DNA of 64,000 bases from Psammoneis japonica (GCA_008632985.1 QPGO01000078.1:248001-312000), one strand, 5' to 3'; positions 13,981-55,269 are shown, counted from the first letter of the stretch. Notes: generated from the letters alone by a model not told the origin. A program made the numbers and translations.

Positions 13981-14131
13981 GACAGACTGACCCACCGAAA
14001 ACCGAGCGAGCGAGCGAGATCTCCGCGCGCGCGAAAGCAGACCGGAGACTGGGCAAACGCCATGACCCATGATGCAACTTCAAAAAGGCGGCGGCGGCGG
14101 CGAAAATACCGTAGGATATGATTGACAAAAG

Positions 14132-25269: not shown

Positions 25270-25759
25270 ATGATTTCTTTTCCTCGTCAAGATTCATGTC
25301 GACAAAACAAACGACGACGGATTGGTGCTGTGCTTTCCTTGATTTTTGTTATTACGTTTCAAATAATTCTCTGTCTTGGTGTGCATTGTGAAGGGGTATC
25401 CATCATTTGGTGCGCAATGGCAGGTTGGATCGTCATGGGGAAAAGAACAAACGTTGAATTGATAGTTCTGGTACTGGACGGTCTTGCAATGTTGTATTAT
25501 GCAATTGTTGAAGAATTTATTACAACTGTGGCTCACTGGTTAGTTCAGAAGCTACGAAAAGAGGACTGATTATGCCCTGGTTTGCGTTGACTAATGTTGC
25601 TTTTTCTCTCGTCCCATCCTCAGTCTCGCCATTCTTGTACTTGGTATCCCAGCTTATATCTTGACTGAGCGGCTGTCAACGACTTCAGCAGTCATTCTAT
25701 CATCATCAACGGCTGGCGATTCACCAACACAAGATGTAACGCCCTTGCTCAGAGACTAA
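25270..25759 (+). CDS. Small multi-pass membrane protein of unknown function (2 exons)
   Basis: Hydrophobic ORF from ATG 25270; a GT-AG intron at 25539-25623 restores the frame TVAHC-LAILVLG...LLRD*. Confidence 0.55.
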
Positions 25760-25798
25760 AACAAAAGAGACTCAATTCTTCTTTATTACAATGTATGT

Positions 25799-27332
25799 TT
25801 ATACCCATTCCCGTGGATGCTTGCAGGCATCGAGAAATTCAGCCTCAGGGGAACCGGGCTCTGGCTTTTGGTCATATTCCCATCGCGCAATTTCCGGCAA
25901 ACTCATAAGGATGCTTTCAATACGTCCTCCGGTCTTCAAGCCAAACACCGTTCCACGGTCATAGACAAGGTTGAATTCAACATAACGACCTCTCCTCATG
26001 AGTTGCCAGTTCTTTTGTTCCTCTGTGAATTTATCATTCTTGTGCTTTTCAATGATTGGCCCGTATGCCTTGACGACCGAATTCAAGCATTCCTTGCTAA
26101 ATTCAAAAATGGTATCGGCATCGCGATCGTTTTGGTCGTCGAAAAAGATTCCACCCAAACCGCGCGTTTCGTTACGGTGTTGAATGACAAAGTATCGGTC
26201 GGCCCAGGCCTTGAACTCCTTGTAGTAGTTGGGATCGTGCTTGTCACAAATCTCCTTGTAGGTGCCGTGAAAGTGTTTCATGTCGTCCTCGTCAATATAA
26301 CTGGGAGTAATATCCGTTCCGCCGCCGAACCACCTGTAATTTTAGAAAAGTAGAAAAGTAATGCAAAGCAACAAGTTTGAACAAAATCAAATATGTTTTA
26401 GAACAATGCTTAGCAACACGTTGAAAGAAACTAAAATGCACACAATAATCGCCTTACCATACACCTCCATCAGTCTCAAAGTATCTGTAATTGAAATGCA
26501 TCGTGGGACACATTGGGTTACGTGGGTGCATGACAGAACTCAATCCACACGCAAAAAAGGGAACACGCTCCCCGGGTGCCATACCCTTGGCACGGTCGAC
26601 ACCGCGTTCTGTCGCGGCCTGCAGGGCTTCTTGCGGCATGGAGCCGTACACCACAGACAGATTGACTCCGGCCTTTTCAAAGACCTTGCCACCCGACAAT
26701 ACGCGAGACATGCCACCACCACCATTGGCACGCACCCATGCATCCTCTTGAAATTCAGCACCACCGTCGATCTCTGCGATTGCTTTTGTAATGTCAATCT
26801 GAGCCTCGCGGCACATTTTTTCAAACTTGGAACGCATCGGGTAGTTTCCCTCGGGGCCGTCGCCCTCACGGACAAGAGAATCGGGAGCTTCCGTCTAAAA
26901 GTTTTTTTTTAATTGCCACATGGATTCAAGAAGAGATGAGGAATCACTATGAATAGAGAGAATTAATTCAGAATCAGCATCGTATGACTCACCACCGGCT
27001 GGTGAGAATTCCATCCAATGTTGACTGGTGGTGCGTCGTCTCCAGCTTTCTTTCCTTCCTTCGTTTCGGCTTCAGCTTCCTTTGTGGAATGCAACCTAAA
27101 TATAAAAGGAAAGAAAACACATGGTAAATAATATTCAATCGAACGATAAGAACTGTTGATGATAAGAACAAGAAAATTTCAAAATCAATATCATCACGTG
27201 ACACGGATCGAGAAAATTCACCCACCTAGATGTGCCTCCGCGAACAAGTGCGATTGGCGCTCGAGGTGCAGCAAAGCCATTAGAGGCAACGGCGGAAGAT
27301 AGAAACAACACTACGGCACTACCAATCCTCAT
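25799..27332 (-). CDS. hemF: Oxygen-dependent coproporphyrinogen III oxidase, plastid-targeted
   Basis: [69 protein letters not shown]; signal peptide + FAAP; introns at about 27096-27225, 26895-26992 and 26334-26456. Confidence 0.95.
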
Positions 27333-27539
27333 TGTCACTGCCTATTATATACCAATGCAATCAACTCAACACAACAGCAAATGGAAAGAAGCTTTTGATG
27401 TTGTTGTCGCCGCCGCCGCGATGGATTCGCGTAAAGTGCGTGGTTGCAAAACTTCAACAAAGCGAGGAATCGTTCGACTCAAAATGTGACACCACTTCCA
27501 CGTGTCTTGCTGGCGTGTACGTACAGCACTGTAGAGACT

Positions 27540-30500
27540 ATCAGCTCAAACACTTTGTCCGCGCCACACAGTCTTCGCTCCGATTGCATTCCAAACACCG
27601 CGAAGAATGCCAACACCGAGTGGAAACGGGCACGAAAAGAAAACAATGACACCTCCCTGCTGTCAACAGCAGATGAGTCTCCATGCAGAGACCATTGCAG
27701 GTGTGCCAATGGACATTCCTTGCACAAACTTGCATGCACAGCCATTGTCGCTCTTGTGGGTGCAGCACTTGAGTGCTGGCAGCATGCAGACCTGCGCCCA
27801 AAAGCCAAACTGTTGCACCAGCATGTGTGAGTGATGGAACACAAACAAAAATTTGTTCTGAAATCCCATCACTCCCCAATTTGCCACACCCACATCAATG
27901 CCAGTTTGACAAAAAATCATGGGGGGTGGCAAAGAGCAGGATCATGCAGAAAGCTCCAAACTTGGGAGCCACCAGCACAGTGTGCTTGTTGAGGCAGGAT
28001 GCCAGTGGGGTGCTGAAGTTTTCAATGAAACAAGGCAGATGCAATGGCCTCTTGCACATGGAAGAATGACAAGGTGGTGTGTCTTGGAGTGAGAGACAGG
28101 GGTGCCATCTGCAGCTGGCTTGTTGTCACTGAACAGGCCTCACTCCTCATCTCATGGGTCAGGATTCCAAGGCAGTGCAAAGCAGTGTGAAGGTCAACAA
28201 CTTGCTCTGCACAAGTTCTTGTGTGGCTCTCTCCAAAAACTCAAACAAAACCCATGCATCACAGCAGTCTCAACTGTGTGCTCTGTTTCTTGGAGAACCT
28301 GTTGACTGGGGACTCTCTTGTTGAGAAGGCAAAGGGGTTTGACCCCAGCAGCTGAGCAGCCTGCAAGCAAACAGCGGAGCAAGCTGGCATCAATGTGCAG
28401 CAAGTCATGGTGACAAACTTGCCAATGGGCTCAGGCACATCATCAGTTGGCAGAGTCTTTTCTGTGCTTTGCCACAAATGGCGCAAGCTCAGTCATGTGC
28501 AGCAGTTGCAGGGAAGGCTGGTCAGCCCTGCCCCTTGGCACAAACATGCAAAGCTCTGTGTGCCTCATTTTTGACTGGTGGTGCACACATGAAGATTGTT
28601 GAGCTTGACCAAAAAGATCATCAAATGAAGCCCATGAAGGGACATGTGCCACTCCAGCAGAGCAGGTGCTGGCTCACTGTTGATGGGCAGGAGCATCAGT
28701 GTGCTGAGGTGGCCATCTGTGACCAGTTGTGCCTTGTTGTGGCAACCACCATGCTCAAGAACACTGCACACAAGATCAGCTGCAATGACTGGTGTGATGG
28801 CTGCACAAAAACAATAGAAAATTGAGCCAGTCCATCTGTGTCTCCCCACATCTCACACCAAGACACCGTGGCAGCAAATCAAGAAGTGGGTGACATGTTG
28901 GCATGAGCAACATTGGATGTTGACTGAATCAAGTGCTCTGCAACTCCATCTTGATGATGAGCATTTGCACCACAGAAGTGCATGCTTTGCTGGGCACTGT
29001 TGATGTGGAAAAGAAACTGGTGGGCCTCAAAAGTGCTGCTGTTGGCAAGGTGGCTGAGTTTGGATGATTGTGCAATGCCCCGCTGCCATGGTCTCACATG
29101 TGCCTGTTTCACTTGAATGGCAATAACGGCAGATGCACTCCAGCCCCAGGTGGGACTGTGTGTGATGTTCGGCCCACAGAATTCTGCATGCAAGAAGTCT
29201 CACAGCAAAAGCATCAAGCAATGAACATGTGAGTGATTGCCAACAACAAAAGAGGTCATTTTGCAAATGCATGTCCTCCTCCACACTTCAAGTGCATCAC
29301 TTGCAGTTTGCCCAGGCACATTCTTCAGACACTCTGGGGTGCACCCAGGGCCTGTTTTTGTGCTCATGAATGCATCTGGAAAATGGGGGGCCCTTTGGTT
29401 TTGCAAAAAAGGGAGTGCGAAACTGTTTCATAGAAAATCACATGCAGAAATGCATGTGCATGACATGTGGTGTGATCCAAAAACCCACTGGTGTTGCAGT
29501 TCAGCAGCACAAGGTCTCACCTGGAGCTGGGGCACACATGGCAACATTGCAGGATCACTTCAGGGGCAAGTTTTGACTTGGTGGCAACTGGGACAGTTCA
29601 CAACAGCTCAATCTGGGTTCAACATTGCAATGGTCAAAAATGATGATTCATGACAATGGCGGTTCTGGGTCTGTGGATCAGCTCATCCGGTGGCCAGAGA
29701 AAAAGATGCATGCTGCGTGCCCATCGACAAAGGAGGAAGGCACTCAGATGTGCACAGACTCAATGTCAACAGACTGGAGATGTGTCTCTCCAATCAACAA
29801 ACAACAACGCCATTGAAAATTGATGAATGACAACTTGTTGATTGCGATCATGTTCAATGAGGACACATTGGTTCAGCACAGCAGCTCCGGTCAGTGAAAG
29901 AAAAGATGCTGTTGCACACTGCTTTTTTGGGCTCGATGACCAGCTGCAATGCTTGTGTGTGACCAGTGATGTCAAAGGAGCAAAAGCTCATGGTCACAAA
30001 CTAAAAGCTGTTGTTGTTGCAAAAGCTGTTGACTGAAAATTGTGACTGCAATGTGTTGATCAGAGATTTTGATGGCGGAATTTGAAATTGCAGCACATTC
30101 AATCACATGTGGAAGGCAGGCAGAAGGACAGACATCAACTCAAAGGGATGACAGAGGTGGCCATGCACCAGCAAGCTGGCAGAGCGCGGAGTGTGGAGCC
30201 CCATCATGCGGAGACGGAAATGGACCAATGATGGCGTTCCCTTCAGCGACCCATTTGGTGGCTCCAAGCCTCCATGACAGTGCTCTCTTGCTCCCTCTGT
30301 GGCCACCTGATCTGCCTCCCAACCACGCACACACCTTTGCACATTCTGTTCTCTGCCCGTGGGCTGTTTTTTCCATCATCATTGCTGCTGCCATCACAAC
30401 ATCAACGGCATTGCTCCCCCGCCGATGACCCAATCCATGACTCGGTCACTCCCTCGAACCTGCACCCCCACCAACAACACTTTGAATGACCTTGCCGCTG

Positions 30501-32052
30501 GCTCATCCCAAACAATGACTTGCGCCCAACCAATGAAACCAACTGTGACCACAGAGTCATTCCTCAACGTGGCCCTTTCCTCACCGACACCACAAAATGA
30601 CCGAATCGCCAACACCAATTGCCCCCTTCTTCTCCGCGACATCTCCCAAGCCCCAACGCCTCATCCACACCCAACACCTGGTGCTCGCCTGCCATCACTC
30701 GCCCATCCTTGTGTCCCCAACACCCAACGCCCACTCATTTACACTGCTGCATGCGCATCATTCACACACATCGCCCTGGGTCATTCAACGCACTTCCGCT
30801 GTCGCACTGAGACCCTCCGACACATGCCCGCAACACCCCCACAGCAGCAGATGTCAACGCCATCAGCAACAATGCTGGTTCATGACTGTGTCCCTCTGCT
30901 GAATTGAAAGCCAGCAGAGTTCCCAAAAACCAAATTTCGACCTCTCAAACACCAGTTTTCTCTGCCGACAGCCTTTTCTCTGCAGATTGCCACCTCGACA
31001 TGGATGAGTTTTTCCTCAACAACCTTGACCCCTTCAACACCAATCTGCCTTTCAACACTGATTGTCCTTTTGCTGATCCCTCCGATGACCTCTGCGACCA
31101 CTTCCACCCCAAAAATGATCTCTCAGATGACCCGTGCAACCAGTTGCACCCCAACAACACTCCACCCTCCAATGACAACACCCCTCTGAGCCTCTCCACT
31201 GCCATGATGACCTCCTGCCTCCTCTCATCAGTCTGTTCTGCCACTGACAACACCGCTGACCATTCGCCCATCCGAGCTCTATGTCGGTCTTCCTCCCATG
31301 TGGACCTGCCTGTCCTGGCCTCTGACGCTCAACTGGCCGCTCTGCGCTGGTCTTCCTCCCACATGGACCCCCCCACTTCCATTGGCACCCCGCCAATCTT
31401 CCTTCCATCACCTTTTGCCTTGATCCTCTGCCCGCTGCACGTGCTCCTCCTTTTGCTGTCCTGCCAACATCACCCTGTCTCACACGCTTTCTCTTCAATC
31501 CTTCAGTCCCACCTTGTTCTCCACCCAGGCTCTTGCACTTTTGTTGCCCTCCTTGAGTCTGCCGCTTCCTTCACCAGCTCGGCATGACTGCCAATCTCTC
31601 CTTCTTCCCTTTCTTGGTGCTTGCACATGCAATGGACCCTCAAATCCACACCCCACCTCCAGACCTTGCCCTCCTCATTCGCACATGCCTCTTCAAGCAT
31701 GCAGCTGAAGGCGACCCTCTCCTTCCTCTTGTCTGCCTTGTTCCCACAAGCCTTCTCTCCTTTGATGACTTCCTCCTCTACATTGACAACTGTGGTGAAC
31801 ACTTCACTCAACAGTCTGTCACTCACACCACCCCTCACATGCATGCACCAAGACAGTTTGTGCAACCTGCACACAAGCAATGAGAAAGGAGATGATGATG
31901 AGAAAGGAAGCACCATCGACGCGACAAGACGAGACAAGAGAGGAAGTGCCGTCAACAACCGGAGACCCATGGAATGACTGCTGACCAATGCCATCTTCCA
32001 TTGTTGATCTGAGTGATCTACAAAAATCCGTTGCGGCAGAGTGGTGCAGGCC
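27540..32052. mobile_element. Degenerate transposon remnants including Copia-like integrase fragments
   Basis: Minus-strand ANAHHQDGVAEHLIQ resembles Copia integrase HQNGVAER; 30950-31800 is homologous to 38230-38960; TpA nearly absent and CpG low. Confidence 0.5.
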
Positions 32053-32057
32053 ACATG

Positions 32058-35000
32058 TGTCAGCCTGTCCATCCTGCAATGGACAGACTGCACACGGATG
32101 ATGGCAAGACCATCCAGACAGACGAGCAGATCTCTCTGAGATCTGCCTCTCACTTTCTCATCTGCTGGTGCTCGTGTTGTCACAGTCCCAGTGCTCAGGG
32201 ACTCTTTCATGCCTCTGTCATCATTGACCTTCAGTGTTCTGTCAGGTCATGGCCTTGCGCTGTGCCACAGAACTCTGCGCCGCGCTTTCTGTTTCGATTC
32301 ATTTGTTTTGTGAGCCGACCGAGCAAGCCTCATCGTCTGTTCCAACAACAATTTTTTCCTTGCTTTTCCGGCATTTTTCACAATCGTAGAAACATGCCAG
32401 ATTTCTGCATGTGCATGACCAAAAATGCCACCACCAAGTCCAACCATGGTGTCTCCGAGAGGTGCAAACCCTCCTCCGACATCCATCACAGAGATCTGTC
32501 ATGAGTTCCAACAACACAACACTCTGCCGCATGTCCACACATCTTTGAACATGCTTCACGTGGATGCCATCCATGCCTTAGACCCCTTTTTTAAAGACCC
32601 TGAGCACGCGACACCCAAGACAAACTTTTTGGACTTGCTGTGTGCACATCTCATCAACAAAGCAATTCCACCTTGCACGGCAGACCCTGGATGATCCTAG
32701 ATCAAGCTCTGTTTCGCATTGTGGACCCTGCCAGGACTCGTGCACTCCATTTGACTCCTGAGAGCCTCTCTCACATGATCAAACTCTGTCTTTGTCAACA
32801 TGAACATGCTCCACACATTCTCATGTCAATGCAGCACATGCACTTCAATCATGATGTGCGGTGGAATTATGGAGATTGGAAAGAGTTTTCTCTTTCCCCA
32901 CATGCATCTGAACAAGCACCTGCGGCTCCACCGTCATTGACCATGAATTCTTCATTGCATTGCATGGACGATTTTGTCACGGCTCCATGTGACGTTGTGT
33001 GTGGTGACACACAGCCACATTTGACAGCTGTTGGGCATCATGGAGGTGCTCCTGTGCATGTTACATCCAAGCATCAACCTGAACAAGAGTCTGTGCTTCT
33101 TTCAGCAACAAACAGATCTTGCTCCTTGATCGGTGCACACAATCTTGTCAAGAACTGGCACAGTTCCCCATCCGCAACTGCGCCACTCAATGTGACTGCC
33201 AGCATTCATTCTGGAGGCACCAACATGTGTTTTACATCCAAGTGCATGCCATCTGTGCACAATCAAGCTCTTGTGCCTCCTCCATCGCTGCTCGCACCTC
33301 CCTCCTTGGCCAGCATTCCCGATCTTGTCACGGTGTCGTGTGATTCATCACTGGGATCTACACTGCCCATTGTGGCTGCCAACATGTCTTCTGGAGACTC
33401 TGCAGCAGCTGTCATGTCTGTGGTTCAAGATGCAACTCCTGACACCAAGACCACTGGCAAGAGTGAAATTGGTTCTCATGTTTGGGTCCAAGAATCCAGT
33501 TTCCGTCACTCAGAGTTGCACCCCGTCTCCACAAAGGGCATTTTCCTTGGCCACTCATCTGATGCCAACAAGCATGTCCTGTGGCAAGATCCTGACACCT
33601 GTCAGACCAAGATTGCCATGCACGTGTGCTTCGACGAGGGCATGGATGACTCTCCTCATGCGAAGGATCAATGCAATCAAGATCCTTCACCTTCTGGTGG
33701 CCATGACAGATGTGATTCACCTTCTTTGCTCTCTTCCTCACCTCAGGTCTCTTGTTTGAGCAATCATGTGTTTGAAGTCTCCAAGATGGACTCAGCTGCT
33801 GAGTCTGCCAGCCACACAGATGCAGATGTGACTCGAGTTGAGGATGCATTTGTCATGGGTGCTCAGATTAATCCCACGAATGCAAATGCACTGGATGTCA
33901 AGCCTGCCATGTCCATTGTGGTTCCTGTGAGTCTGTCATCTGCAGTTGTTGTTGCTGGCTCCCTGGCATTGCATGCCAACTTGGCAGAACTTCCCCTCAA
34001 CATCAAGGTCCCACTTCAGTCCCCCAGCATCTGTTGTGATCATTCTGTTGATTCATGCAAAGGTGGCATCATTCTTAAGATGGAGGATTTGTCCTCTCTT
34101 TCCAAGTGTGCCAATGACACCAGCAACTCCTGTGCCATTGTCATTTGATGTGGATGACCACTGTCACCACATGGACAGTCACCCAGTTCCCTTGCCTTTG
34201 GATTTTTGGCTCGGCCGTCATCAACCTTGGATGTGCGATGCCACCAATGCTCACATTGTCTGAACAAGACTGACAGCAGCGGGGTGACTGTGAAAGAGGG
34301 CCACTGAGCTTTTTCACCCTCCGCTGTTCCACCTCTTCCATCTGACGGGATGGCTGTCATTCATTGACACCACCTGTGCGAATCTGACGGCTCCGGTCAT
34401 GTCCACCCTTGCAGATGACGACCCAAGTCTTCCTCTTCAGGAAATGTCAAAACACAGCACCAAGCAAGCGAGCGAGTTGGCAAAGCATGTGATCGATTGT
34501 GGAGCTGTGTCCATGATGGACATCTCTTTGCATGGCACTTCAGATTGAACGGTGCTCACTGTGCATCCATTTTCTTCCAACATGGACAAAGCCTGTGGCT
34601 CCACTGCCTCTTCTCACTCAAATCTCCCGGTTGGATTGAGGTGCATTCCATCATCTCTTGGCTCAACTGGTGTGTTGAATGTGGTGTTTTTTTGCCATCT
34701 CTGCCATCATGGCGACACTCGCGTCTTGTGGTTTTTGATTGCTTTTGAATGATTGTGCTGCGAGACATGTCCAAGACTCGCCAAAATGTCTTGACAAATG
34801 CTTTTGTTTGTTGCAGAGCGACGTTCGCTGTTGTTGTCATCCAATGACCGCGTTGCTGGCCACAACCACCCCAACCCTTTTGACGATTTCAGTCCCGAAC
34901 CGCGATCAACCAATGGATCACTTCTGCCCTTTTTTTTAGGAACCCTCATCATTGATGATGTTTCCACCAATGGCATCTGCTGTGGTCATTCATGCACCTC

Positions 35001-36850
35001 TTTGCCATCCAACTGAGGCTCATGTCATGCTCTTCACTTGCTTCTGTTGGGACTTTCCCATGACTTTGGCACATTTGACGAAGTGTGCTGAAGATGCGCT
35101 TGGTGCAGCTGCTCAGATGGATCCCAGGAATGCCAAAGCATTGGACATCAAGTCTGCTGTGTCTGTTGTGGAACCTGTGGGTGAGCCACCTGCAGTTGTT
35201 GCTGCTGGATTTCTTGTCCCACCGAATCGATGGTGCTTCCCACTGAGGTCCACGCCTGCCTGCTCGTGACCCCAAAGTTTTTTGTTTCTGGCCATTCCAT
35301 TGTTCCATGCAACGATGGCCACATTTCTTCCAGTTGTGGCCTGTCCTTCATCATCAAGGTCACACCCAAGTTGCTTGCCACATGTGCGCTGCCGTCATCT
35401 GTCACCCATGGATGCCGCCAACACTTCGTTGGTTGTCAAGTTGACTCAAATTCGGATTTTTGGTTTGGCCGTCATCAATTTCGGACACACGATGCAGCCA
35501 TTCCTTCACTCATCTGAACAAGACCAATGAAGCGGGGCAGTTGTGAAAGAGGACCATGGAGTCTCACTGCCTTCCGCCAGCCCATCTCTTTCCTCTGTTG
35601 TCAGGATTGTCATTGCACCCAATTGTGCTTTTCATGGTGCTCCGGATGTGTCCACCATTGCTGATGATGACCCTCATTTGCATGATCAGGGGAGGGATCC
35701 CTGTGGCAAAGAGGCAACACACAAGGCTCATGAGCATCTGCAATCCGGCACAGACACCTTTTTTGGTGGCCAAGATTTGGACACACTGCTGTGCCTGCGC
35801 ATCCGTTCCTCCAACATTGAGGAATTTCACGCTGTTTTCTCTTTGTTCAATGAGCTTTGCAAGGGTGGAGCAACATGTGGCACAGGTGCAGCTCTGTCTC
35901 GCGGGTTGCTCACGATTTATTTTTGCCGCATCCTGCACCATGGCGACGCCATCAAGACCGTTGTGATCTCGAATGACATTTTTCATGGTGCTCCCGACCT
36001 GTCCACCATCGCTGATGATGATCCTGCATTTCCGGATCAGGGGAGGGATCACTGTGGTGCAGAGGAAGCATGCAAGGCTTTTCAGCATTTGAGATTCGGT
36101 CCAGACACATCATTTGGCAGCCAAGAATTGGCAGCACTGATGTGCTCACCTGCCATGAGTCTTCGTCCTTCCGACGTTGAGGACTTTTACGCAGTTTTCT
36201 CTTTGCCCAATGAGTTTTTCAAGGGTGGAGCAAGATGTGGCAGTGGTGCTGTTTTGTCTGGTGGGTTGCTTCCGCTTTGTTTTTGCCGCATCCTGCACCA
36301 TGGTGATTTCCCATTCTGCCCCATTTCATTGGATGAGATTCAGCGACATCACGACTCACCAGAATGTCCATTTGGCTTCAATTGCTTGTTGATTGACAGA
36401 TTTTTTCAATGGTTCAAGTCTCGATTGACACGCAAGTTTTGTTGGAAACTGCCGATGATTTTTTTGTCGAAGACTTTGATGGATCAACACACACGCGCTG
36501 CAGCCATTGCTGATTTGTGGTGGTTCCTTTGCGATCACGTGTTGAGCAACCCTGGACACCACTGCTTTGTTTTGTCATCCTTTGGTTTTCCTCTACATTG
36601 TCCCTGTTCTTTGGTTTGATCTGCACTGTCTTCTATCTCGAGACATTGCAGATCAGGGGAGGGTGTCAGCCTGTCCATCCTGCAACAGACAGACTGCACA
36701 CGGATGATGGCAAGACCATCCAGACAGACGAGCAGATCTCTCTGAGATCTGCCTCTCACTTTCTCATCCACTGGTGCTCGTGTTGTCACAGTCCCAGTGC
36801 TTGGGGAGTCTTTCGTGTCTCTGTCATCATTGACCTTTGGCACTCTGCCA
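32058..36850 (+). mobile_element. Non-autonomous Copia-type (CoDi-like) LTR retrotransposon
   Basis: 187-bp LTRs 32058-32244 and 36664-36850 (TG...CA); 5-bp TSD ACATG; PBS-like ggtcatggcc 32245-32254; PPT aggggaggg before the 3' LTR; KGIFLGH...HVCFDEGMDD post-integrase motif; no RT recognised. Confidence 0.85.
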
Positions 36851-36855
36851 ACATG

Positions 36856-39550
36856 AGCATGGCAGCACAGCTCCATGTCAAGGAGGGAGAAGCACAAGAA
36901 GACGGTTTCATGGGCAATGCAGTGGGTTTGGAAAGAAGGAGAAGAAGAGAAGACACAATCCAGACAATTGGCATGCAAGAGGAAGCACAAACAATTGAAA
37001 AAAGCTGCCATGATGAATTGGAACAACGAGGAGCAAGCGGGTTGCAAAAGAGTGCAGCTCCATTGGGCACTCAACATTCTAAAAGAAAAGGGCTGCACAA
37101 AATGTGTTGTGTTTGCCTGTGCACGGAAACAACACGTCTTGACTGCTTTGCAGTTGTTCCTGCAAGTGGCTGGCATGTCGCTCCAAGGACAAAGACTTTG
37201 AGAAGTGCTCCAGTCCTTTTGGGAGAATGGCGCCATTGCTTTGGAGAGCAATCAGCAAGACCAAGACTGCGCGGCCAGTCTCTTGTGTTTTTGGCAGATG
37301 AAGGATGTTCAAGAGAACTTTGCAAGGCCAGAACTGCTGTTGTCTGTGGACACCAATGAAGAGCGGAATGGCCAAGTGGCCGCCCAGGCCTTGGAGGATG
37401 CAGAGATGGTGGACAGCTGCGAAGGGTTGCCTCACGTGCTTCAAAAGATCGTTGCAAATTGCACAAGCTGCCATGATTCCCAAGATTTAGATGCTGCTTG
37501 CATGGCCCTTGCTGCAACTGTGGGGCATGAGTGAGACAGGTTCTCAAATGCTTCATCCAGCTTCTTCCTTGGACCAGCATGCCCATGATGCAAAGGAAAG
37601 CAAGGATGATGAGGACCAGGTGGGTGAATCAGCACCGAAGCACCACAGGAGCCTGTGAGCACAGTTTTCTTGATTGCAGGGGTGTGCCAGTTTCTGCTTT
37701 TTCAGCTGTTTGGCCAGACAAAAAAAGAAAGACCAGTTGAGGGTGATGCAGCAGAGAGATCCAATTTAGAGTGTTGTCAGGGTGTGCCGCAACTGGCCAA
37801 CCACCGAAAGGCAACAGGCAGGCGTCATGCATTTGCCATGCATCACAACATCTTGTGTGCCCAAATTGAGACCTTTGATCACTCTTTCAAGGGTGGTTGA
37901 ATCCACATCATGTGCTGATCTGATCAAACAAGCTCTTTTGTGAAGTGATGTGAGACATGCGCGAAGAATGAAATTTTGGCAACAAAGGCAATGCCATTCT
38001 TGCTCTGCAGTGCAGTTGAGTCGTTTGGTGTTCTCCCCAATTTTCAAAAAAGGAACTCGTGCATTGTTCCACCAGAGAGTGAGTCGTTGAGAGCAGCATT
38101 GGCATGCCATGGCCCTCTTTCATTTTGACAGAGAGCCAAAGAAAAGATGATGGTCGACAGACAGATCTTTGCTTTGTTGGAAACTGAAAATGGCAAACAG
38201 CATCCAAAGCAGCACTCTTTGACCAGGCACCCATCAGTTCTCTCTGCTGTTTGTTGCTTTGGCATGGATGAGTCATTCCTCAACCCAGGTTCATTTGATG
38301 ACCCTTCTGATTGCTCCTTTGAATGCAACCCTTCTGATGACTCCCATGAGTGCAACCCTTCTGACGTTGATCCTCAATCCAATGATCACAACTGGACCAC
38401 CACCCAAATGATTTCCTTCCTTCTTTCCTTGGTTTGTCCCATGAATGACAATGCTGCCACATGCTCCAATGCTCCAATGACCTTTGTGACTCCCAAAGTT
38501 GGTGTCAACAAGACTTCCCCAATCTTGTCTCTCATCCTCCCCTGCGCCAGTCTTTCTCCAATTTGGACTTGCCAGACCCAACTTGACATGACACCATTCT
38601 CCCACTGATCACCTTCCACCCAAGTCCTCCACCTGCTTCCCATCTTCCTCCGTTTGCAGCCCTTCCTCTGCCACCCCATTTTGCCCATTTTCTTGTTGAT
38701 CCTTTGGCTCCTCCCTGCTCAATCCCCAAGCTTCAGTCCTTTTGTTGCCCTCCTTGAGTCCGCCGTTTCCTCCACCAACTTGGCATCACCTCCAATCCAT
38801 CCTTTTTTCATTTCCTTGCACTTGCCTGCGCTGTGGACCCCCGCATTTTCACACCATCACCAGACCTTGCCCTCCTCCTTTGCAAGTGCTTCTACAATGA
38901 GACAGCCTGTGGTGAACCTCCCCCCTCTTTCGTCTGCCAAGTTCCCACACACACCTTCTTCACTTTGACAACTTTCTGTGAAATGCTTGGATGGATCAAC
39001 CAAGTTCTGACAGCACGTGTCAGAATGTGCTGCTTCCAGCTTGTCAACCTCGGCTTGCCCCCCAACCCACATCACACACCTGTGAAGAAAGCACAGAAGC
39101 TGCTCTGCCACCAGGTTGCTTTCCGCACTTGTCTGTGCAAAGGTCAAAATGTGATTGCATTCTCCCAACACCTTAAGCTGCACATCGTTCATTTCCTTGG
39201 CTCTTCAGGCATGTCCAATGTCTTCTTCACAATCCTGGGGGTTCCATCAAAATGAACAACGTGTCCTGGCAGACATGGCCAAACAAATCTCGATGCAAAT
39301 GGGGTTTCACTTTCTCACAGAGGTCATGGAAAACACTCACAACAGTGCTGGAGACAGGAACTGCTGAGTCAAAGCAGCCCTTCATTTCATCCATGCCAAA
39401 GACTGGCCACTTCACACTGGAGCACTGCTGGCATGCCTCACAAGTCATTCCTTTTGGCTCATCTGGAGGATTGTCCTTCTGCTCTTTTAGAAATGGATGG
39501 TGCAACTTGGCACCTGCTCAACATCAATCTAAAAGGGAGTCTTCAAAAAA
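36856..39550. repeat. Degenerate repeat related to 30950-31800 and 48000-48700
   Basis: Shared blocks, e.g. ttgttgccctccttgagtc at about 31540 and 38741, and cccaaattgagacctt at about 37860 and 48396; TpA-depleted. Confidence 0.55.
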
Positions 39551-39699
39551 AAAACCAAACCCCAATTTTAAGTGCTGTCGCACCTTTGCCCAGCAACTCC
39601 GGTGCCGGCCAACCCACACTTCCAGTGCACCCTGCGGAGGATGCGGCAGAAACACAGTGCAATTAGCCGGTTTCGGCACCCCTGTTAGAGGGCGCCCGA

Positions 39700-42210
39700 C
39701 AGAGACAGCTGCAAATGGCGCGAGTGCCGCTTTTTGCGAGTCATTTGGCTTCTTTCAGGCTGTCTTTTAATCTTGGACGGACCACAGAGATCCAGTTTTG
39801 GATCCTCGTTGTCGAAAATGACAGGTGTTCTTCGACCGAATCTAATGACACACCTCTGTCCTTTGCCAAGCATTCCTGTCGTTTGTTGTTTGTCGCCGTC
39901 AGTTCGGCTTCCGCCTTTCTTCTCTGAGATGATTTCCGAGACTCAACATCATGCCCATGAACCAACTTGTTGTGCTCCTCCCACAGTTCCCACCAGTTCT
40001 TCCACATGAAAGACCCCATCTGAACCGTCCAATCCAGTGGCTGTTTGTTTTCCTCCTGACATTGTCGTAAGATGCCTGAGTCGCGGAGGTGTCCGGATTG
40101 TAAAAGATTCCACATGCACGAGCATCTGCCGTTGAATGTCTGTCTCCATCCCATGTCCGATTGAGCTCTCCATGGTTCCTTGCATCGGCAATCCACGTCG
40201 TCGAGATGCGTCAGTTCTTCGTTAAACCAGGCCTGGAGCATTTCCAACAGAAAGTCACGGAGAGCAGGCATTGTGTCGATCTTGTCGCAATGATGTCGGA
40301 GACCCTGCAAGAACTTCCTTCTCCACTGTTCATCATTTGGACACCGAAGTGTGTGGTCCCTGTCCTCCATCGGATGCTCACATGTGATGCAGTGGTGCGG
40401 TCGAACTGGGTTGCATCTGTTTGCGATCTTGTTGGTCGGCAGCAAGTCATGGACCAGTTTCACGGCATTCACGTGTTGTTGTGAATGACGTTTCACCAGA
40501 ACCGCGTGAGCGTCCCAATCGATTGGATCCACCACTGAAGGATCCCATTTGTTCCGTTCGACAACACATTCCATCAGTTCAGGAGCAGTGGCAGCGCACC
40601 GGATCTGTTTCTTGCAGTTCGTCGTGATTGTGCATCCGTCAATCTCCAGATGCGAGAGGCAATGTGGCAGATGCTTGACCTGATGCATGTCATGCGGATG
40701 ATGGCCTTGACAAGCTCCTGCCAATTTGTCCGCTCGGATGTTAACTCTGGCATTTAATGGCAATGAGTGGATGGGAGATTGCCTGTCTTGATGTCCTTTT
40801 GCCCATTGCACTGGAGGCAGAGCGAGATCGGCTGCATCCGACAGTTGCGTCAAAGCTTGCTGGGTGTGGAGGATCTCATTCAAAACACCCCAATCCGGAG
40901 CCACAGCATTGGCCCCATGATGGCGAATGTGAAAGTCGTGTTGTTCATGTGCGTCATTCTCGGGATCACTCACCGGTGGGGTGGGAGTCAATTTAGACAA
41001 GCAGTTCGCCAGTGCTTTGTTGTCGCAATGAATCACTGCATCCAAAGGAACGGTGACACGGCAGTGTTCGCACAGCCGACAGATGAATCTTGCAATGGAT
41101 GGAATGCTGCACGCTTCTGCTTGGTGAGAGGACGGAGTCTTCCCAAAAACTGGCCCTGCACAATCCACTGGTGGTGCACCATCCACAGCAATGGTCCACC
41201 CAAAGGTGGCTCCATCTTGGACTGATCCATCACTGCCTGCGGTGAGATGAGACAAAAGAAAGCATTGAGCCACTGTTTGAGGAGAAACATGAAATGCCAA
41301 GTCTTCAAATGGTGTAGATTCCCACTTCTCGAGGCCCTGAAGATGCGACACAAAGGAATCTGGAGTGGTTGGAGAGTGGAAAGCGGTTGATGAAGTGCGC
41401 GGGATCTCAAAACGCCATCGTCCGTCTTCAATGGCAGACACCTCAACTGGGTGAGAAGAATCGGAAGGATTTGGTGCTGTCTCCATCTCTCTGACAGAAT
41501 CAGCGATTGTCCTGTTTGCTTGAAATGTGTCACAACCGGTTGGAGATGTACACACAAACACTCCTTGGATGGGGAAAAGCGTGCAGTTGATTGCATCCTC
41601 ATCTGGGACGGTGGCAGAAGCCAATCTCCTAGGGGCTCTTTTAAATGCAGTGACTTCGGATGGCACAGGGCTGAACAAAATTTCTTCCAGACTTTCCATG
41701 CTCGCTGGCATGGCTTGCACTGCTCGATGTTGTTGAGTGCACTGACACTGCTTTGCAAGGACGGTTCCCCTTGTGCTTTTGACCCATCCAGCGTCATCCC
41801 ATCTGAGAGAGCAATGTCTGAAACAGATGAGACTTTCAGGTGCAGACGGCAACAATTTAGCCACCGGATCTCACGCGCGGCAAAGGACTGGGAATGCAAA
41901 GCAACATCCATCAAGTGCTGGTCGTCATCTCGTTGAAGTGGAAGGACCCCGTTGTGGCGTAGAAACACCCGGCCATTGATCTGCTGTAAAAACAACCCAA
42001 CAGACGCGAACCATCTAGATTCCACATGAGGCAATGCGGCATCGACGTCCCACAAGAAACTCTCACCAGTTCCCAAGTTCAGTTGGATCCACGCTGCGGC
42101 GATGTGAAGAAGCTTGTGCGGTTGATCCTCCCCGAGCTGCAAGTGCAAAAGGGAGTCTTCAATGTCATGTGCAAAGGCATCAAAGCTGCCTTGTAGAAAC
42201 AGCAGGCGGT
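39700..42210 (-). mobile_element. 5'-truncated non-LTR retrotransposon with RNase H domain (Ambal-like)
   Basis: AGSDGSV, SSHQAEAC (expected SSYRAEAY), IHCDNKAL, WAKGHQD and NIRADKLA RNase H motifs; upstream LNCCRLHLKVSSVSDI; C-terminal CxxC..HxxxC knuckle. Confidence 0.75.
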
Positions 42211-44548
42211 TGCAGAATCCGGGCGAGTGCCATGTCTGCTTGGAATTTTTGTCATCAAAGCTCTCAACATGCTCTTGATGCAGGCTTCTTGCACTCTCTG
42301 GATGCTTGCTCCAGATTTCTTTCGAGTGTGTTGTGCAATTCTTTGGGCTTTCATGCTTGTGTCCTCTTTTGTTTTTTGTTTCCTTGCAGCACCCAGACTC
42401 CACATTGTGGCACTTCAGATCCCCTCCAATGATGACAGAGTGAGTCAATTCTTTGTTCAAAACCTTTTGACATGAGGGTTGCTGAGCAGTGCACCCAGCC
42501 AGTGAGATGCAACGGCTTCCCGCACTGGGGGCATTTTGTTTGCATGCTGCCTCCAATGTTGAAACTGTCATCCTTTGCGCTCTGTCAAAGATTTCTGGAC
42601 AAACAAAAACAATGTCCAAGTCAGAAGGAATCACGAATTCTTCCACTGCCTTCATGACTTCAGCTTCTGTCCATGATGGTCCAATGTGATGTTTTTCAGT
42701 GCAGAGCCTTGGGGGTGTGGGAATGTGCTTTGGGTGGCTTGGCATGACTCTGTCCAAATGCTTTCTCAGGTCTCCTTCTCTGAATTGAAGCAAGTCCTGT
42801 CATTCCCAGATGCCCTTCCTCTCTTTTGATCACTCATGGGCACTGCAAAAGGCATGCCACCTTTGTCAACACAAGGCAACTTGTCACATTCCTTCAGCTT
42901 CCTGAGGCATGCTTGGATGGGGTGAGCTCTTTTTCCACTTTTGGTGCTCGTCACATCTGAAGGGGTGGCAGAAGATGGTCGCGCGCTGGCTGCAAAGACT
43001 TTGAAGCAACATTTCTTCGGTGGAAGAACGCAGCCACAGACGACTGGGAAGACATGGCAAGTCATTGGAAACAACAACAGCTGCACGTGACAAGAGCACC
43101 AGTGCGACTGTTTTTGTCTCTGCACCCTTTTTGACTCTCGCTGATCTGGCTGCGCAAAGCACCATCATCATTTTGGTTGTTCGTCATGAGGAATTTAATT
43201 GCAACACAGAATGGCATGATGCACTGCACCAGAAAAAGACATGTGCCCAAGACGACATTGCTTGATGCTGCGATGCTCTGCATGCGTGCAAATTGGCACG
43301 CATGTCGCAGACACACGACACGCTGCGATGCACTCCGCAGCCTCTTCTGGTGTGTCGCATCGCAGCATGTCGCAGACATGTGAGAAAGCTGCGAGATGCG
43401 CCCACGCAGCCAAAATGAGTTTTTTTTCGACAGTGCTTCTACATGATCCCGTTTATTCTCTCGTGTCGGAGAGATCATCGGATCTCTCCATGCTGTCTGT
43501 GCTAGTCTGTCTGACAGAAGGGAGTGTGCTCCCCATCTCGGATGTCTGACAAAAACAAAAAATGCAGCTTTTGTGACCTTGCAAAAGCTCATCTCCTTTC
43601 GCGCTTCTGTGACTCCATTGTGTCGATGAGGAGATGTTCACAAAGGCTGAAGGACATCGACCGTCTATGTATGTCAAGCGACATCCGATTCTCAGCTTGG
43701 GGCTTGGGCTTGAGTGGAGATTCGGGACTCAACAAAGAATGGGCCGTGGGCTTCACGCAGGTTTAAAATGGTAAAAACGCCACCATATCCACGATTGAAG
43801 AAGCTCAACAGCCCATAACCCTCCCACGCTGAATGACGATGACGGCGGCGCAGACGGTTTAGATGCACTCGTCCGACACAATGGTGGCCGAGAGGGACAT
43901 GTTGGGAAGTGACATGTATACGATGACGACTTCAAGAGTCTTTTTTGCATTTTATACCGCTTCATTACAAGTCGACAAAATTTTGAAAAGCGGACGTGTC
44001 AATTTTGTTTGGAAACGAGAGGTTTTTTCAAGAGCAACTTGTACGACAATTGGATTGAGATTTTCTCTTTTATTGCGCACTATTGGAAGTACATAACTGC
44101 AAAAATACGTTTGCCTTTTATTGATCGAGAAGGAATGGGCATATGGCAAAAGAGTCCGACAACGGAAACAGATGATGCTCTCAGACTCCCGATGAATCTG
44201 GAAGCAGTGCAAATGATTCATTCATTCTCATTGCAGACGCACACCAGACGCATGTGTTTCTTGATTGGTTTATGAGCAACTACCAAAAGAACTGCTCTAC
44301 AAGAAAGCAAAGCATTGAGAAAAGATTCGCATCATCAAATCACCGTCGACATGGTCTTCGTCGAGTCGGAAGATTGACAGACGTTGTTAACAACGCGCGA
44401 GATAGATAGATCTGCGAGATCGATCGAACGCTTGCACGATGCGCTTCAGGAAACGAGAACTCTGACGCAACTAACGCGATCATAAATCACAAACCTGGTA
44501 CGAAACTCAAAGTAGCCTTCTCGTTCTTTTCGAAAACATTTATGCACA

Positions 44549-47739: not shown

Positions 47740-47925
47740 GAGAAAAAATGTGAGATGGAATTTCCGGGAAAGATTCTCACACAGAATCTACAAAAGATTG
47801 CACCACAACATCTTTCTGCGGGTTTGCGCTCTGAGAAAAAATGTGAGATGGAATTTCCGGGAGACATTCTCACACAGAATCTACGAAAGATTGCACCACA
47901 ACATCTTTCTGCGGGTTCGCGCCCT
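47740..47925. repeat. 93-bp tandem duplication
   Basis: gagaaaaaatgtgagatggaatttccggg...ctgcgggtt x2 (tgtgagatgg at 47749 and 47842). Confidence 0.85.
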
Positions 47926-55118: not shown

Positions 55119-55269
55119 CAAGACCCAGAGCCACGCCCTCCTGTGGTCGTGCTTCCCAGGTGCATGTTAACAACACTGCGTTGCCATGTGCAAGAGGCTT
55201 GTGCACGGTCTCGCCGTGTTGTCCAGCAGCAAGGCATGCTGCACACTCCCCCATGATCAGGGCCGTCAA

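Follow-up and report, generated by a model that had tools for sequence, protein, structure and literature searches.

Targeted, permanent mutagenesis of mobile DNA has, to our knowledge, been thought essentially fungal, in the form of RIP, with deaminase restriction in animals as the other case. RIP converts C to T mainly at CpA, thereby creating TpA and lowering GC content; it is tied to sequence duplication in the premeiotic dikaryon and is dependent on RID/DIM-2-type cytosine methyltransferases. In animals, APOBEC3 (on cDNA) and ADAR (on dsRNA, with a preference for 5' U and 3' G) hypermutate retroelements by context-specific deamination, before integration and on one strand or on RNA. The same A>I>G chemistry as would be needed at TpA is carried out by TadA/ADAT2, which act on an A with T/U directly 5' of it (U33-A34), as in TpA, and by engineered adenine base editors; the natural substrates are, however, tRNA anticodon loops, and this universal housekeeping enzyme has no known link to the chromatin of transposable elements (TEs). 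The available part of one account links RIP to RID/DNMT4 methyltransferases, notes that DNMT4, with a function not known, is present in some diatoms, and documents CG methylation of diatom TEs (PMC9998398).

In the chlorarachniophyte Bigelowiella natans, integrated DNA of viral and other foreign origin has been described as undergoing TpA-specific hypermutation (Mettrop et al., bioRxiv 10.64898/2026.01.13.699255). According to the accessible portion of that preprint, 230 of the 231 SNMs in two viral hypermutable regions of mutation-accumulation lines, sequenced with Illumina, were A>G or T>C, and de novo TpA>TpG/CpA changes arose in particular regions at about 1000x the genome rate, with episodic activity. 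Reverse transcriptase and DDE domains were over-represented among coding sequences almost without TpA (frequency 0.0018), and an adenine deaminase was proposed, with ADAT2 as the named candidate (bioRxiv 10.64898/2026.01.13.699255). For diatoms, a literature search found no earlier description of TpA-type hypermutation, in agreement with a sequence-only reading of the DNA considered here; the B. natans report, as far as its available text goes, nevertheless provides a precedent outside the diatoms.

The window analysed is a 64,000-nt stretch of the genome of the diatom Psammoneis japonica (GCA_008632985.1 QPGO01000078.1:248001-312000). It probably records a targeted, post-integration process that turns A:T to G:C at TpA in the TE DNA of this organism.

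Loss of TA across the window

Within positions 27540-43700 there are 56 TA dinucleotides (56/16160, a frequency of 0.0035) against 993 expected from base composition, and 581 would be expected at the TA frequency of the host genes of the same window (Poisson P(<=56) = 6e-173). TA is absent from 27541-28810, TG and CA are over-represented (O/E 1.74 and 1.66), and AA, TT and AT are all undepleted (AA 1.15, TT 1.12). The sequence-only reading had counted about 56 TA in the block and none in its first part, both exactly right, and its figure of about 1000 expected TA and its large excess of TG and CA were likewise borne out. It had also reported the same loss at ~4300-14000, ~24130-24840 and most of 46700-64000. 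This holds for the first two (both O/E 0.08) and for the last taken as a whole (0.27), except that the last includes two TA-normal islands, at about 52000-54100 and 57600-58500. Normal TA in host genes, a further claim, was found in the host stretches 14000-24130, 24840-27540 and 43700-46700 (TA O/E 0.52-0.54, CpG O/E ~1.0). A sliding-window comparison of TpA and CpG, suggested at the same time as a check and carried out within the 64-kb window, gave TA O/E below 0.25 in 78 of 128 windows of 500 bp. Features are listed in Table 1.

Table 1. Coordinates of TA-depleted tracts, TA-normal islands, mobile elements and host contrast genes in the window
Feature	Position	Strand	Evidence or remark
Second TA-depleted tract	about 4300/4500..14000		TA O/E 0.08
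Cysteine synthase (PALP), host contrast gene	14126..15442	+	Pfam E 1.9e-64; TA and CpG normal
Short TA- and CpG-depleted fragment	24130..24840		TA O/E 0.08, CpG 0.34; host genes either side
Coproporphyrinogen III oxidase, host contrast gene with introns	25062..27349	-	Pfam PF01218, two exons
TA-depleted repeat block	27540..43700		TA O/E 0.06, CpG O/E 0.42, TG 1.74, CA 1.66
LTR element D, within the block	32057..36837	+	LTRs 32057-32231 and 36663-36837
Copia-type integrase SH3-like remnant, element D	33381-33662	+	PF25597, E 2.9e-6
TA-depleted tract, left part of 46700-64000	47000..52000		31 TA survive, 2 of them RTAY
Outer Gypsy-order LTR retrotransposon	49695..60083	-	LTR matches; Pfam domains
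Outer Gypsy LTR1, split by nested insertion	49695-50005 + 55115-55256	-	LTR match
Nested younger LTR element B, inside outer LTR1	50004..55118	+	LTRs 50004-50373 and 54749-55118
TA-normal island in element B	52000..54100	+	TA O/E 0.5-1.0, GC 0.38-0.41, CpG undepleted
Outer Gypsy pol	58523 to 55286	-	RVT_1, RNaseH, Integrase_H2C2, rve (Pfam), RT-RH-IN order
TA-normal island in outer Gypsy pol (protease + N-terminal RT)	57600..58500	-	RTAY 22%
TA-depleted tract to window end	58500..64000		38 TA survive in 58550-64000, RTAY 0
Outer Gypsy LTR2	59640-60083	-	LTR match

Tract edges are sharp to about 100 bp (at 4500, 14000, 27540, 43600 and 47000). To the left of the main block the last TA lies at 27539, and normal TA density is regained from about 43666; the end of the coproporphyrinogen III oxidase gene is about 190 bp from the block. 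At the right edge of the second tract there is a single TA at 13808 and dense TA from 14107. With regard to the two contrast genes, relatives of the cysteine synthase are 55-70% identical, both organism-labelled ones being diatoms, and a spliced contig of run X2 omits 26332-26455, 26893-26992 and 27094-27223 of the coproporphyrinogen III oxidase gene.

CpG is also reduced in the main block, a point absent from the earlier reading, and CpG O/E is 0.0-0.2 in 12000-14000 of the second tract. Across windows, TA O/E and CpG O/E are correlated (Spearman +0.77).

Like fungal RIP, the process is a DNA-level hypermutation of integrated repeats by transitions in a dinucleotide context, with sharp borders, destruction of coding capacity and a rate far above background. 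The direction is nevertheless the reverse, with TpA lost, CpA and TpG gained and GC raised, and RIP was rejected on these grounds (TpA O/E 0.06, CpA/TpG 1.66/1.74, GC 0.50 in TA-depleted windows versus 0.47 in the remaining windows). Decay of CpG was similarly rejected as the source of the TG and CA excess, the CpG deficit of the block being 591 against a TA deficit of 937.

Mobile elements and repeat status

A Pfam search of 146 + 89 + 46 stop-to-stop frames placed one element firmly in the Gypsy order (RT-RNaseH-integrase at 55545-57857 on the minus strand). Besides this, it picked up a second Gypsy-like remnant and, within 27540-43700, the remnant of one Copia-type integrase; there were no LINE or DNA-transposase matches in these frames. 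The claim that Copia, Gypsy, LINE and DNA transposons are affected alike can therefore be upheld for Gypsy and for a Copia remnant, but not for LINE and DNA transposons. No Pfam TE domain was found in the tract 4500-14000, and phmmer and tblastn searches with element D matched nothing beyond ~90 aa of its integrase remnant. The rewriting of Tyr, Ile, Val and Leu codons defeats TE protein searches on copies of this kind. The pol of the outer Gypsy element can be aligned to its homolog P0121 over residues 2-1096 and carries in-frame stops and frameshifts. The outer LTR2 is uninterrupted and continuous across the site at which element B sits in LTR1, and residues 159-692 of Gypsy pol can be aligned with the interior of element B (52355-53838).

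Repeat status and base calls were assessed with k-mer contigs of a public run, X1, which represents one sample from one study. The summed depth of similar X1 contigs reaches ~2900 versus ~56 for the flanking host gene, which supports the view that the block 27540-43700 is repeated DNA. Contigs of 665-3195 nt fit the window with 0-5 differences, at a depth of 52.8-70.5 in TE parts versus 55.9 in the flanking host gene, and cross up to 1568 nt of TA-free sequence with 0-1 differences at a k-mer depth of 59.6-70.5. These data bear on the highly improbable reading that TpA carries a symmetric modification which sequencers or consensus callers turned into TG or CA depending on the strand, the real DNA still being TA. 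Random consensus choice at misread sites would also yield a mixture of TG and CA, doublets between LTRs and Tyr codons changed to His or Cys, and there is no record of the library type of X1. With a strand-discordant modified base, however, depth would be halved and contigs would break at every site, giving half-depth bubbles every 15-20 bases, whereas the X1 contigs run at the depth of the single-copy host flank, which argues against an assembly or base-calling artefact even though X1 may be the assembly's own sample and hence not an independent check. In addition, paralogous copies differ by fixed TG<>CA doublets (6 of the 33 events classified, among the 40 matches listed), and the same signature arose de novo in the Illumina data of B. 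natans, according to the available text of the preprint.

Direction and timing of the change

An element inserts with two identical LTRs, and four such pairs (997 aligned nt) were compared. They differ by 22 CA<>TG doublets, where 0.46 would be expected from CpG decay, together with four TA-versus-TG/CA singles, 13 CpG singles and eight unrelated differences, only some of which are transversions; two TA are kept in both copies. TA-derived doublets hold 44 of the 69 differing bases over the four pairs. The LTRs of element D (94.9% identical) show three CA<>TG doublets, one CpG single and two other differences, and those of element B (370 nt, also 94.9% identical) seven doublets, one TA single, three CpG singles and one other. 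Since the LTRs started out identical and now differ mainly by CA<>TG doublets, TA was lost after integration. The converted fraction of TA is 0.96 per LTR copy, and the TA rate is ~780x background (the non-TA, non-CpG rate of the same LTRs), an indirect estimate from four LTR pairs. Deamination of 5-methylcytosine at CpG accompanies the process in the same tracts (CpG O/E 0.42, ~33x background in the LTR pairs, correlation +0.77), but it removes CpG rather than TpA, is ~25 times slower here, and as a source of the doublets was rejected as present but secondary. The earlier view that neither RIP nor 5-methylcytosine deamination is adequate is thus sustained, TpA being lost rather than gained and CpG decay supplying 0.46 of 22 doublets.

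The verified elements are retrotransposons, and editing before integration, of RNA by an ADAR-like enzyme or of cDNA by an adenine deaminase following APOBEC logic, must be considered. As an origin of the LTR differences it is refuted by the 22 doublets, given that the LTRs of a single element derive from one template. It is extremely unlikely in general, since strand outcomes are about 1:1 within one element, the 3' preference is for Y rather than the G of ADAR, and untouched islands lie in the middle of pol. The one-strand bias expected of ADAR or APOBEC logic is not seen in the TG and CA counts (1675 and 1696), in the runs test (z 0.88) or at Tyr codons (His 10, Cys 9). In contrast to APOBEC3 and ADAR, then, the process has acted on both strands of integrated DNA, and the LTRs diverge.

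The same direction is evident at the protein level. In the depleted part of the outer Gypsy pol, all 19 Tyr codons conserved among 50 intact relatives are changed, 10 to His (CAY) and 9 to Cys (TGY), with no TA>CG double change among the 19. Of 111 conserved columns that have changed, TA>TG/CA accounts for 51 and CpG for 8, the remaining 52 representing family divergence. Tyr content is 0% in four depleted pol pieces versus at least 2.8% (median 3.8%) in 120 relatives. These results, with the LTR pairs, support the proposal that A to G change at TpA, on either strand, acts at the DNA level and is confined to repeats. They refute the notion that no mutator is involved, in which the TE families are intrinsically TA-poor or TA has been removed by selection, for instance against UpA in RNA. 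Host genes too have lowish TA (O/E 0.52), but a pol that has lost 19 of 19 conserved Tyr and carries in-frame stops and frameshifts cannot be under functional selection, islands of the same elements reach TA O/E 1.0, and the LTR pairs place the change after insertion; almost no credence is left for this explanation.

Sequence context and strand

Survival of TA depends on its neighbours. Measured against a reference of host DNA plus islands, which are not true ancestors, ATAT is found 0 times in depleted DNA versus 126, ATAC/GTAT 0 versus 133, and TTAA 74 versus 106 (additive context model, LR 238, 3 df). The RTAY share is 0-6% in five separate tracts versus 24-29% in host DNA. The preference is for 5'-TA-Y, with T>C>>G~A at the 3' base, which equals R-TA if T is the target. 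In the main block TG and CA outcomes are balanced (1675 versus 1696), with no strand-coordinated runs in a runs test (z = 0.88), and the context model weakly predicts His versus Cys (His in 7/11 after purine and 4/10 after pyrimidine).

Error-prone synthesis by a Pol eta-type polymerase, making WA>WG errors while methylated or damaged repeats are being repaired, had been put forward earlier as one candidate. Pol eta does favour A>G at WA motifs, and CpG decay in the same tracts could trigger repair. WA includes AA, however, and neither AA nor TT is scarce in the block (1.15/1.12), which together with the rarity of transversions makes Pol eta a poor fit; the outcome is almost purely transition at TA, and neither the 3' preference nor a saturation of 0.96 per copy is expected of patchy repair synthesis. 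This candidate is accordingly very improbable.

Because TA is palindromic, neither A versus T as the target nor the enzyme can be read from sequence. Every sequence result would fit equally well with T>C at R-TA, in which the same targeted hypermutation would start from modification of the T of TpA, to 5-hydroxymethyluracil or a base-J-like product of a JBP/TET-type dioxygenase, followed by mispairing with G or misrepair. Dinoflagellates are known to carry modified thymine at TpA, as are the telomere repeats of kinetoplastids. We know of no evidence that modified thymines give clean T>C at near 100% yield, and glycosylase-initiated repair would be expected to give mixed outcomes, whereas transversions are rare here and all 19 Tyr codons became CAY or TGY and nothing else. 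Modification of T is consequently unlikely.

Islands within young elements

The island in element B has a host-like TA context (RTAY 34%) and codes for the element's own protease-RT-RNaseH, and is therefore not a later insertion. In the outer element, an open frame (56985-57857) and the P0121 alignment both continue over the island border; two of three conserved Tyr are changed in this island, and eight of its 19 changed columns can be explained by TA, so that it may have been lightly hit. The depleted tracts are repeats by X1 depth, but the spared islands are conserved protease-RT parts of pol, which speaks somewhat against a trigger that simply senses homology, as duplication does in RIP. 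The elements are young with saturated LTRs, and a simple, uniform silenced-domain model does not accommodate the islands.

Proposed mechanism

Following integration of a TE, a targeted mutational process probably acts on chromosomal DNA, converting A:T to G:C at TpA in both orientations (TA>TG or TA>CA) and leaving hardly any TA. Its action is confined to tracts that coincide with repeat/TE DNA and with slower CpG decay, a signature of cytosine methylation; the hits are single and independent, and they outpace other substitutions some 800-fold. All Tyr codons are lost, and with them numerous codons for Ile, Val and Leu, which inactivates the elements, and GC is raised by ~3-4 points. The sequence shows the signature, its direction, its timing after integration, its context and its confinement, while chemistry, targeting signal and defence function are inferred. 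As to chemistry, our best guess, with belief about evenly divided, is an enzyme that deaminates adenine to hypoxanthine, which the following round of replication reads as G. Targeting through silenced, methylated chromatin appears preferable to targeting by sequence homology, and the dead elements that result suggest a function in genome defence.

As far as the available text of the B. natans preprint allows comparison, both systems involve A>G/T>C changes only at TpA, confined to regions, at rates orders of magnitude above background, and an adenine deaminase is proposed for both. In P. japonica the restriction to TpA is seen in the LTR pairs, the Tyr codons and the undepleted AA/TT/AT, the elevated rate (~780x) is indirect and comes from four LTR pairs, and sharp borders and X1 depth indicate that invading or repeated DNA is affected while host genes are spared. 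The systems differ in that B. natans is a rhizarian and the present host a stramenopile, and in that the verified targets here are LTR retrotransposons near saturation, the evidence being comparative rather than of de novo events. The TA-Y preference, the absence of strand runs, the overlap with slower CpG decay and the all-or-none islands in young elements are new here; the preference, the overlap and the islands were not found reported in the accessible part of the B. natans preprint.

A fuller account can be offered tentatively, with belief slightly short of an even balance. Diatoms would possess a dedicated, chromatin-guided editor that acts at 5'-TA-Y in silenced mobile DNA, changing A to G via inosine on either strand, in all-or-none tracts and soon after insertion, as an arm of defence beside cytosine methylation. 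Homology with the chlorarachniophyte system, also part of this account, would make it old and SAR-wide, and its enzyme would be a natural adenine editor of double-strand context.

Significance

As primary producers, diatoms rank with the most important of all. In the diatom window, a process opposite in direction to RIP has erased TA from most transposon DNA. For annotation, TA-free tracts constitute a one-line signal of silenced TEs. GC content and dinucleotide-based gene finders will be biased, and dating of TEs by LTR divergence will go badly astray if TA and CpG sites are left unmasked. The TA-Y preference and strand independence place concrete constraints on a search for the enzyme; as a naturally occurring editor of adenine in DNA, such an enzyme would itself be of interest. 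Taken with the 2026 Bigelowiella result, as given in the available text of that report, the findings suggest that protists have a second, widespread form of mutagenic genome defence.

Loss of TA and CpG in the repeat tracts

Direct counting in the block, the TA-depleted repeat DNA at 27540-43700, gives 56 TA dinucleotides against 993 expected from base composition (observed/expected, O/E, 0.06) and zero TA from 27541 to 28810, exactly as the sequence-only reading had reported. The other compositional claims of that reading also hold, namely a surplus of TG and CA in the block (O/E 1.74 and 1.66), further TA-poor tracts at 4300-14000 (O/E 0.08), 24130-24840 (O/E 0.08) and 46700-64000 (O/E 0.27 overall), and normal TA in the host-gene stretches 14000-24130, 24840-27540 and 43700-46700 (TA O/E 0.52-0.54). 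At the host TA frequency the block would be expected to hold 581 TA, for which P(<=56) = 6e-173. A point missing from the earlier reading is that CpG is likewise low in the block (O/E 0.42); in the same host-gene stretches it is about 1.0. Across the window the profile is nearly bimodal, with TA O/E below 0.25 in 78 of 128 windows taken in 500-bp steps, and TA O/E correlates positively with CpG O/E (Spearman +0.77) and negatively with TG+CA (-0.80). The balance within the block is close, in that the TA deficit of 937 and the CpG deficit of 591 approximate the TG+CA excess of 1400. Borders are sharp: on the left side of the block TA is last found at 27539, and dense TA resumes from 14107, to the right of the 4300-14000 tract.

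Several local features accompany these tracts. CpG is nearly absent as well as TA at 12000-14000 and 28000-29500 (CpG O/E 0.00-0.22), presumably the most ancient repeats or those with the heaviest methylation, and at 50500-51000 and 59000-60000 TA is lost and CpG retained (O/E 0.9-1.7). The first 500 nt of the window, adjoining fasciclin genes, have O/E 0.24 for both dinucleotides and probably belong to the margin of a further repeat tract that extends beyond the window. Short stretches of (GAGC)n, (CG)n and (GGC)n simple repeat at 13996-14101 lie exactly where a TA-free tract gives way to the cysteine synthase gene. Within TA-depleted DNA at 47740-47926, a 94-bp segment is duplicated head to tail (94.7% identical), and three of the five differences are transitions at CpG-type sites.

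Direction and timing of the change

Polarisation by LTR pairs relies on both LTRs being copied from one template and identical at integration. Four such pairs (997 aligned bases) contain 22 CA<>TG doublets, four sites with TA in one copy and TG or CA in the other, 13 CpG-versus-TG/CA singles and eight unrelated changes, and both copies retain 2 TA and 46 CpG. CpG decay, calculated from the singles as 0.12 per copy, predicts 0.46 CpG-derived doublets against the 22 observed, so that independent hits on TA in each LTR must be the source of the doublets. Taking doublets and singles together, an estimated 0.96 of approximately 48 ancestral TA were converted per copy, at a rate ~780 times that of unrelated changes, with CpG changing at ~33 times. 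In the LTRs of element B (370 nt), 18 of 19 differing bases are at TA- or CpG-derived sites and one is unrelated.

Protein comparison leads in the same direction. The pol of the outer Gypsy-order element was aligned by tblastn with 50 of 60 relatives (P0121-P0180, those of at least 950 aa), and 463 columns in its depleted part were treated as conserved (at least 25 relatives aligned, at least 70% agreement). All 19 conserved Tyr in this part have changed, ten to His (CAY) and nine to Cys (TGY), with none kept, and other frequent changes are also those expected (V>A 6, I>T 6, I>V 6, T>A 7). Among 111 changed columns, TA>TG/CA explains 51, CpG decay 8 and neither process 52, these last being family divergence. 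Four depleted pol pieces contain 0% Tyr, 3.1-5.3% Cys and 3.1-6.2% His; among 120 relatives Tyr never falls below 2.8%, and median contents are 3.8% for Tyr, 1.2% for Cys and 2.6% for His. For paralogous copies in the public sequencing run X1, the tally of differences from the window is 206 transitions and 40 transversions, and the 33 events classified among 40 listed of 247 differences comprise six TG<>CA doublets, 16 CpG singles, one TA single, one GC>AT doublet and nine others.

The LTR pairs and the Tyr polarisation thus bear out the central inference of the sequence-only reading, that TA becomes TG or CA on either strand of integrated DNA, and the two outcomes occur in about equal shares. 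Intrinsically TA-poor families, selection, and editing at the RNA or cDNA stage are each excluded by a post-integration TA>TG/CA change on both strands.

Sequence preference and pattern of hits

The survival of TA is far from random with respect to flanking bases, as is evident from context counts on both strands of the depleted tracts (37.8 kb) and of a reference of host DNA plus TA-normal islands (22.6 kb).

Surviving TA by flanking context in depleted tracts and reference DNA
Context	Depleted	Reference	Normalised ratio
ATAT	0	126	0
ATAC/GTAT	0	133	0
GTAC	8	122	0.04
ATAG/CTAT	7	111	0.04
ATAA/TTAT	16	144	0.07
GTAA/TTAC	25	110	0.14
CTAC/GTAG	39	115	0.20
CTAA/TTAG	38	92	0.25
CTAG	26	48	0.32
TTAA	74	106	0.42

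A model in which the A of each strand is hit at a rate fixed by its 3' neighbour gives cumulative hits of 2.68 for T, 1.43 for C, 0.58 for G and 0.48 for A, and its likelihood ratio over a single-rate model is 238 (3 df), a value somewhat inflated as palindromes are counted twice. The order is repeated in the block alone (TAT 0.03, TAC 0.06, TAG 0.14, TAA 0.16), and RTAY (R-TA-Y) makes up 0-6% of surviving TA in each of five depleted tracts versus 24-29% in three host stretches. Tyr codons give a weak and underpowered result in the right direction, with His in 7 of 11 after a purine versus 4 of 10 after a pyrimidine. There is no strand coordination along the block, where TG (1675) and CA (1696) alternate as by chance, and coding-strand outcomes in Gypsy pol are similarly balanced (His 10 to Cys 9). 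The strand-coordinated tracts expected of a processive single-strand deaminase were not seen (runs z 0.88). Double hits, which would give CGY (Arg), occur in 0 of 19 conserved Tyr codons.

Agreement with sequencing reads

TA loss could be mimicked if a modified base were read as G on each strand; the prediction would be conflicting TG and CA reads, with depth halved and bubbles at intervals of 15-20 bases. Nothing of the kind was seen in X1, whose k-mer contigs cross TA-free DNA in long pieces and of which 1096 contigs were placed on 24500-44499. The check is not independent, since X1 is one sample, possibly the window's own source, with its library type unrecorded; even so, an artefact of this kind is very improbable. 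The block is repeated, with summed X1 depth reaching ~2900 in some bins versus ~56 over a host gene. The boundary of the repeat in X1 (a contig break with 17 loose ends) is reached only at ~27694-27701, inside TA-free DNA, and the preceding ~150 bp (27540-27694) are TA-free with normal CpG density and still on the single-copy contig with the host gene. This segment could be the end of an element that has diverged, or the process may have leaked into DNA beside the repeat. Neither the RNA-like run X2 nor run X3 has contigs on the TE block, which is uninformative on expression.

Elements, TA-normal islands and X1 contigs in the window
Feature	Position	Strand	Description
Element D	32057-36837		inside the block; 175-bp LTRs; ~90 aa integrase remnant of Copia type
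Outer Gypsy-order element	49695-60083	-	RT, RNaseH, integrase zinc domain and integrase core in order
Element B	50004-55118		younger; inserted within an LTR of the outer element, whose second LTR is uninterrupted across the insertion point
Island	52000-54100		in element B; RTAY 34%
Island	57600-58500		in outer element; RTAY 22%
X1 contig, host flank	24500-27694		0 differences; depth 55.9
X1 contig	27674-29241		1 difference; depth 59.6
X1 contig	29216-30036		0 differences; depth 67.9
X1 contig	30025-30959		0 differences; depth 70.5
X1 contig	36785-38268		0 differences; depth 65
X1 contig	38909-39573		5 differences; depth 52.8
X1 contig	42781-43497		0 differences; depth 58.9

Transposable elements and TA-normal islands

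The sequence-only reading had named Copia, Gypsy, LINE and DNA transposons among the affected repeats; Gypsy-order elements and a Copia-type integrase remnant were recovered, and a LINE and a DNA transposon were not found. Very few TE domains came out of Pfam searches on 146, 89 and 46 stop-to-stop frames, and none was from a LINE or a transposase; this absence does not amount to exclusion, as heavy mutation reduces search sensitivity. The Copia-like frame at 32604-34145 had no match in a word-based search; exhaustive phmmer gave 45 proteins, all matching only query residues ~260-410 (the SH3-like part of integrase), and tblastn with these proteins matched only 33381-33662. In the outer element, residues 2-1096 of P0121, an intact relative of 1096 aa, align from 58523 to 55286, and the pol frame carries nine stops.

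Both islands are AT-rich (GC 0.38-0.46), with TA O/E of 0.5-1.0, CpG not depleted, a host-like TA context and borders ~100 bp wide, and the LTRs and remaining interior of both young Gypsy-type elements are TA-saturated, an all-or-none pattern. Later insertion of the islands is ruled out, since each encodes its own element's protease-RT pol region in register with the flanks. Later gene conversion from unmutated copies is possible, and sub-element targeting by small RNAs or chromatin, or tract-wise episodes, are further options. The outer island, in which two of three conserved Tyr have changed and 8 of 19 changed columns are TA-explainable, may have been lightly hit.

Host genes

The relatives of the cysteine synthase gene (14126-15442) are 55-70% identical, and the host is called diatom-like because the only organism-bearing names among the 120 relatives listed, Nitzschia inconspicua and Minutocellus polymorphus, are diatoms; the host is not Bigelowiella. 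Further host genes are those for coproporphyrinogen oxidase, proteins with fasciclin domains, a C2H2/PHD protein and a DUF7640 protein. At 25623-27349 (minus strand), within the gene for coproporphyrinogen III oxidase, an X2 contig skips 26332-26455, 26893-26992 and 27094-27223, three introns of 100-130 nt; because this contig is spliced, X2, listed as 'DNA?', behaves as an RNA run. The C2H2/PHD zinc-finger ORF (20109-23072, minus strand) contains a tandem array at 21997-22907 (period ~100 bp, copies 72-83% identical) with lowish TA O/E (0.26-0.42) and normal CpG. The 645-aa ORF at 44516-46453 has seven DUF7640 repeats (Pfam E 1.1e-64) and internal DNA repeats at 45152-45393 and 45877-46246.

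Mechanism and relation to known systems

The window records a context-specific A:T>G:C process on both strands of integrated DNA, ~800-fold above background and confined to TE tracts that also carry methylation-type CpG decay. Genuine post-integration, TE-confined TpA>TpG/CpA hypermutation is probably the correct reading. Deamination of adenine to hypoxanthine, which would then pair with C, is the cleanest chemistry option and has about an even chance of being the route. As TA is a palindrome, the main alternative, mispairing of a modified T of TpA, accounts for the sequence data just as well. It predicts messier outcomes and is unlikely. Synthesis of the Pol eta type, which had been proposed on first reading, fits poorly, as AA and TT in the block are not depleted. 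Photoproducts formed by UV at TpA in heterochromatin with poor repair were rejected because the TA loss comes with no dipyrimidine C>T signature (eight unrelated changes in 997 nt); GC-biased gene conversion is ruled out because it is not dinucleotide-specific. For the favoured hypermutation, targeting would be more plausible via silenced, methylated DNA than via homology, because the spared islands are the most conserved parts of pol. Irreversible inactivation of the elements is an effect of the process; we infer that it is also the selected function, namely defence.

Diatom TEs are described as CG-methylated, and the RID-related DNMT4 as present in some diatoms with unknown function, in PMC9998398. 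Fungal RIP is alike in logic but opposite in chemistry, and the window thus does not show the C>T change and TpA gain that define it. The closest match is the system of Bigelowiella natans, as presented in the main text of a 2026 preprint (10.64898/2026.01.13.699255). Of 302 nuclear SNMs across 15 mutation-accumulation lines, 231 were located in an integrated giant virus and a virophage, and 230 of these 231 were A>G or T>C, all 230 on TpA, at a rate of ~6e-7 in viral regions versus 3.5e-10 elsewhere. The same text reports 324 CDS that almost lack TpA, among which RT and DDE domains are enriched, and proposes ADAT2 as the enzyme; the terms 'context', 'trinucleotide', 'flanking' and 'diatom' are absent from it. 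Every sequence-level feature described there is found in the window, which adds to that account a second, distant host lineage, LTR retrotransposon targets, the rule favouring TpA with a 3' pyrimidine (TA-Y), the tie to CpG decay and the islands. In the full-text literature searched, whose coverage leaves out most subscription journals, there was no description of TpA hypermutation in diatoms, and the Bigelowiella preprint was the sole relevant match. The phenomenon is striking, but since this signature has already been documented for another alga in one preprint, it does not form a new category. The window represents a further case of a kind of hypermutation that has been described only very recently.
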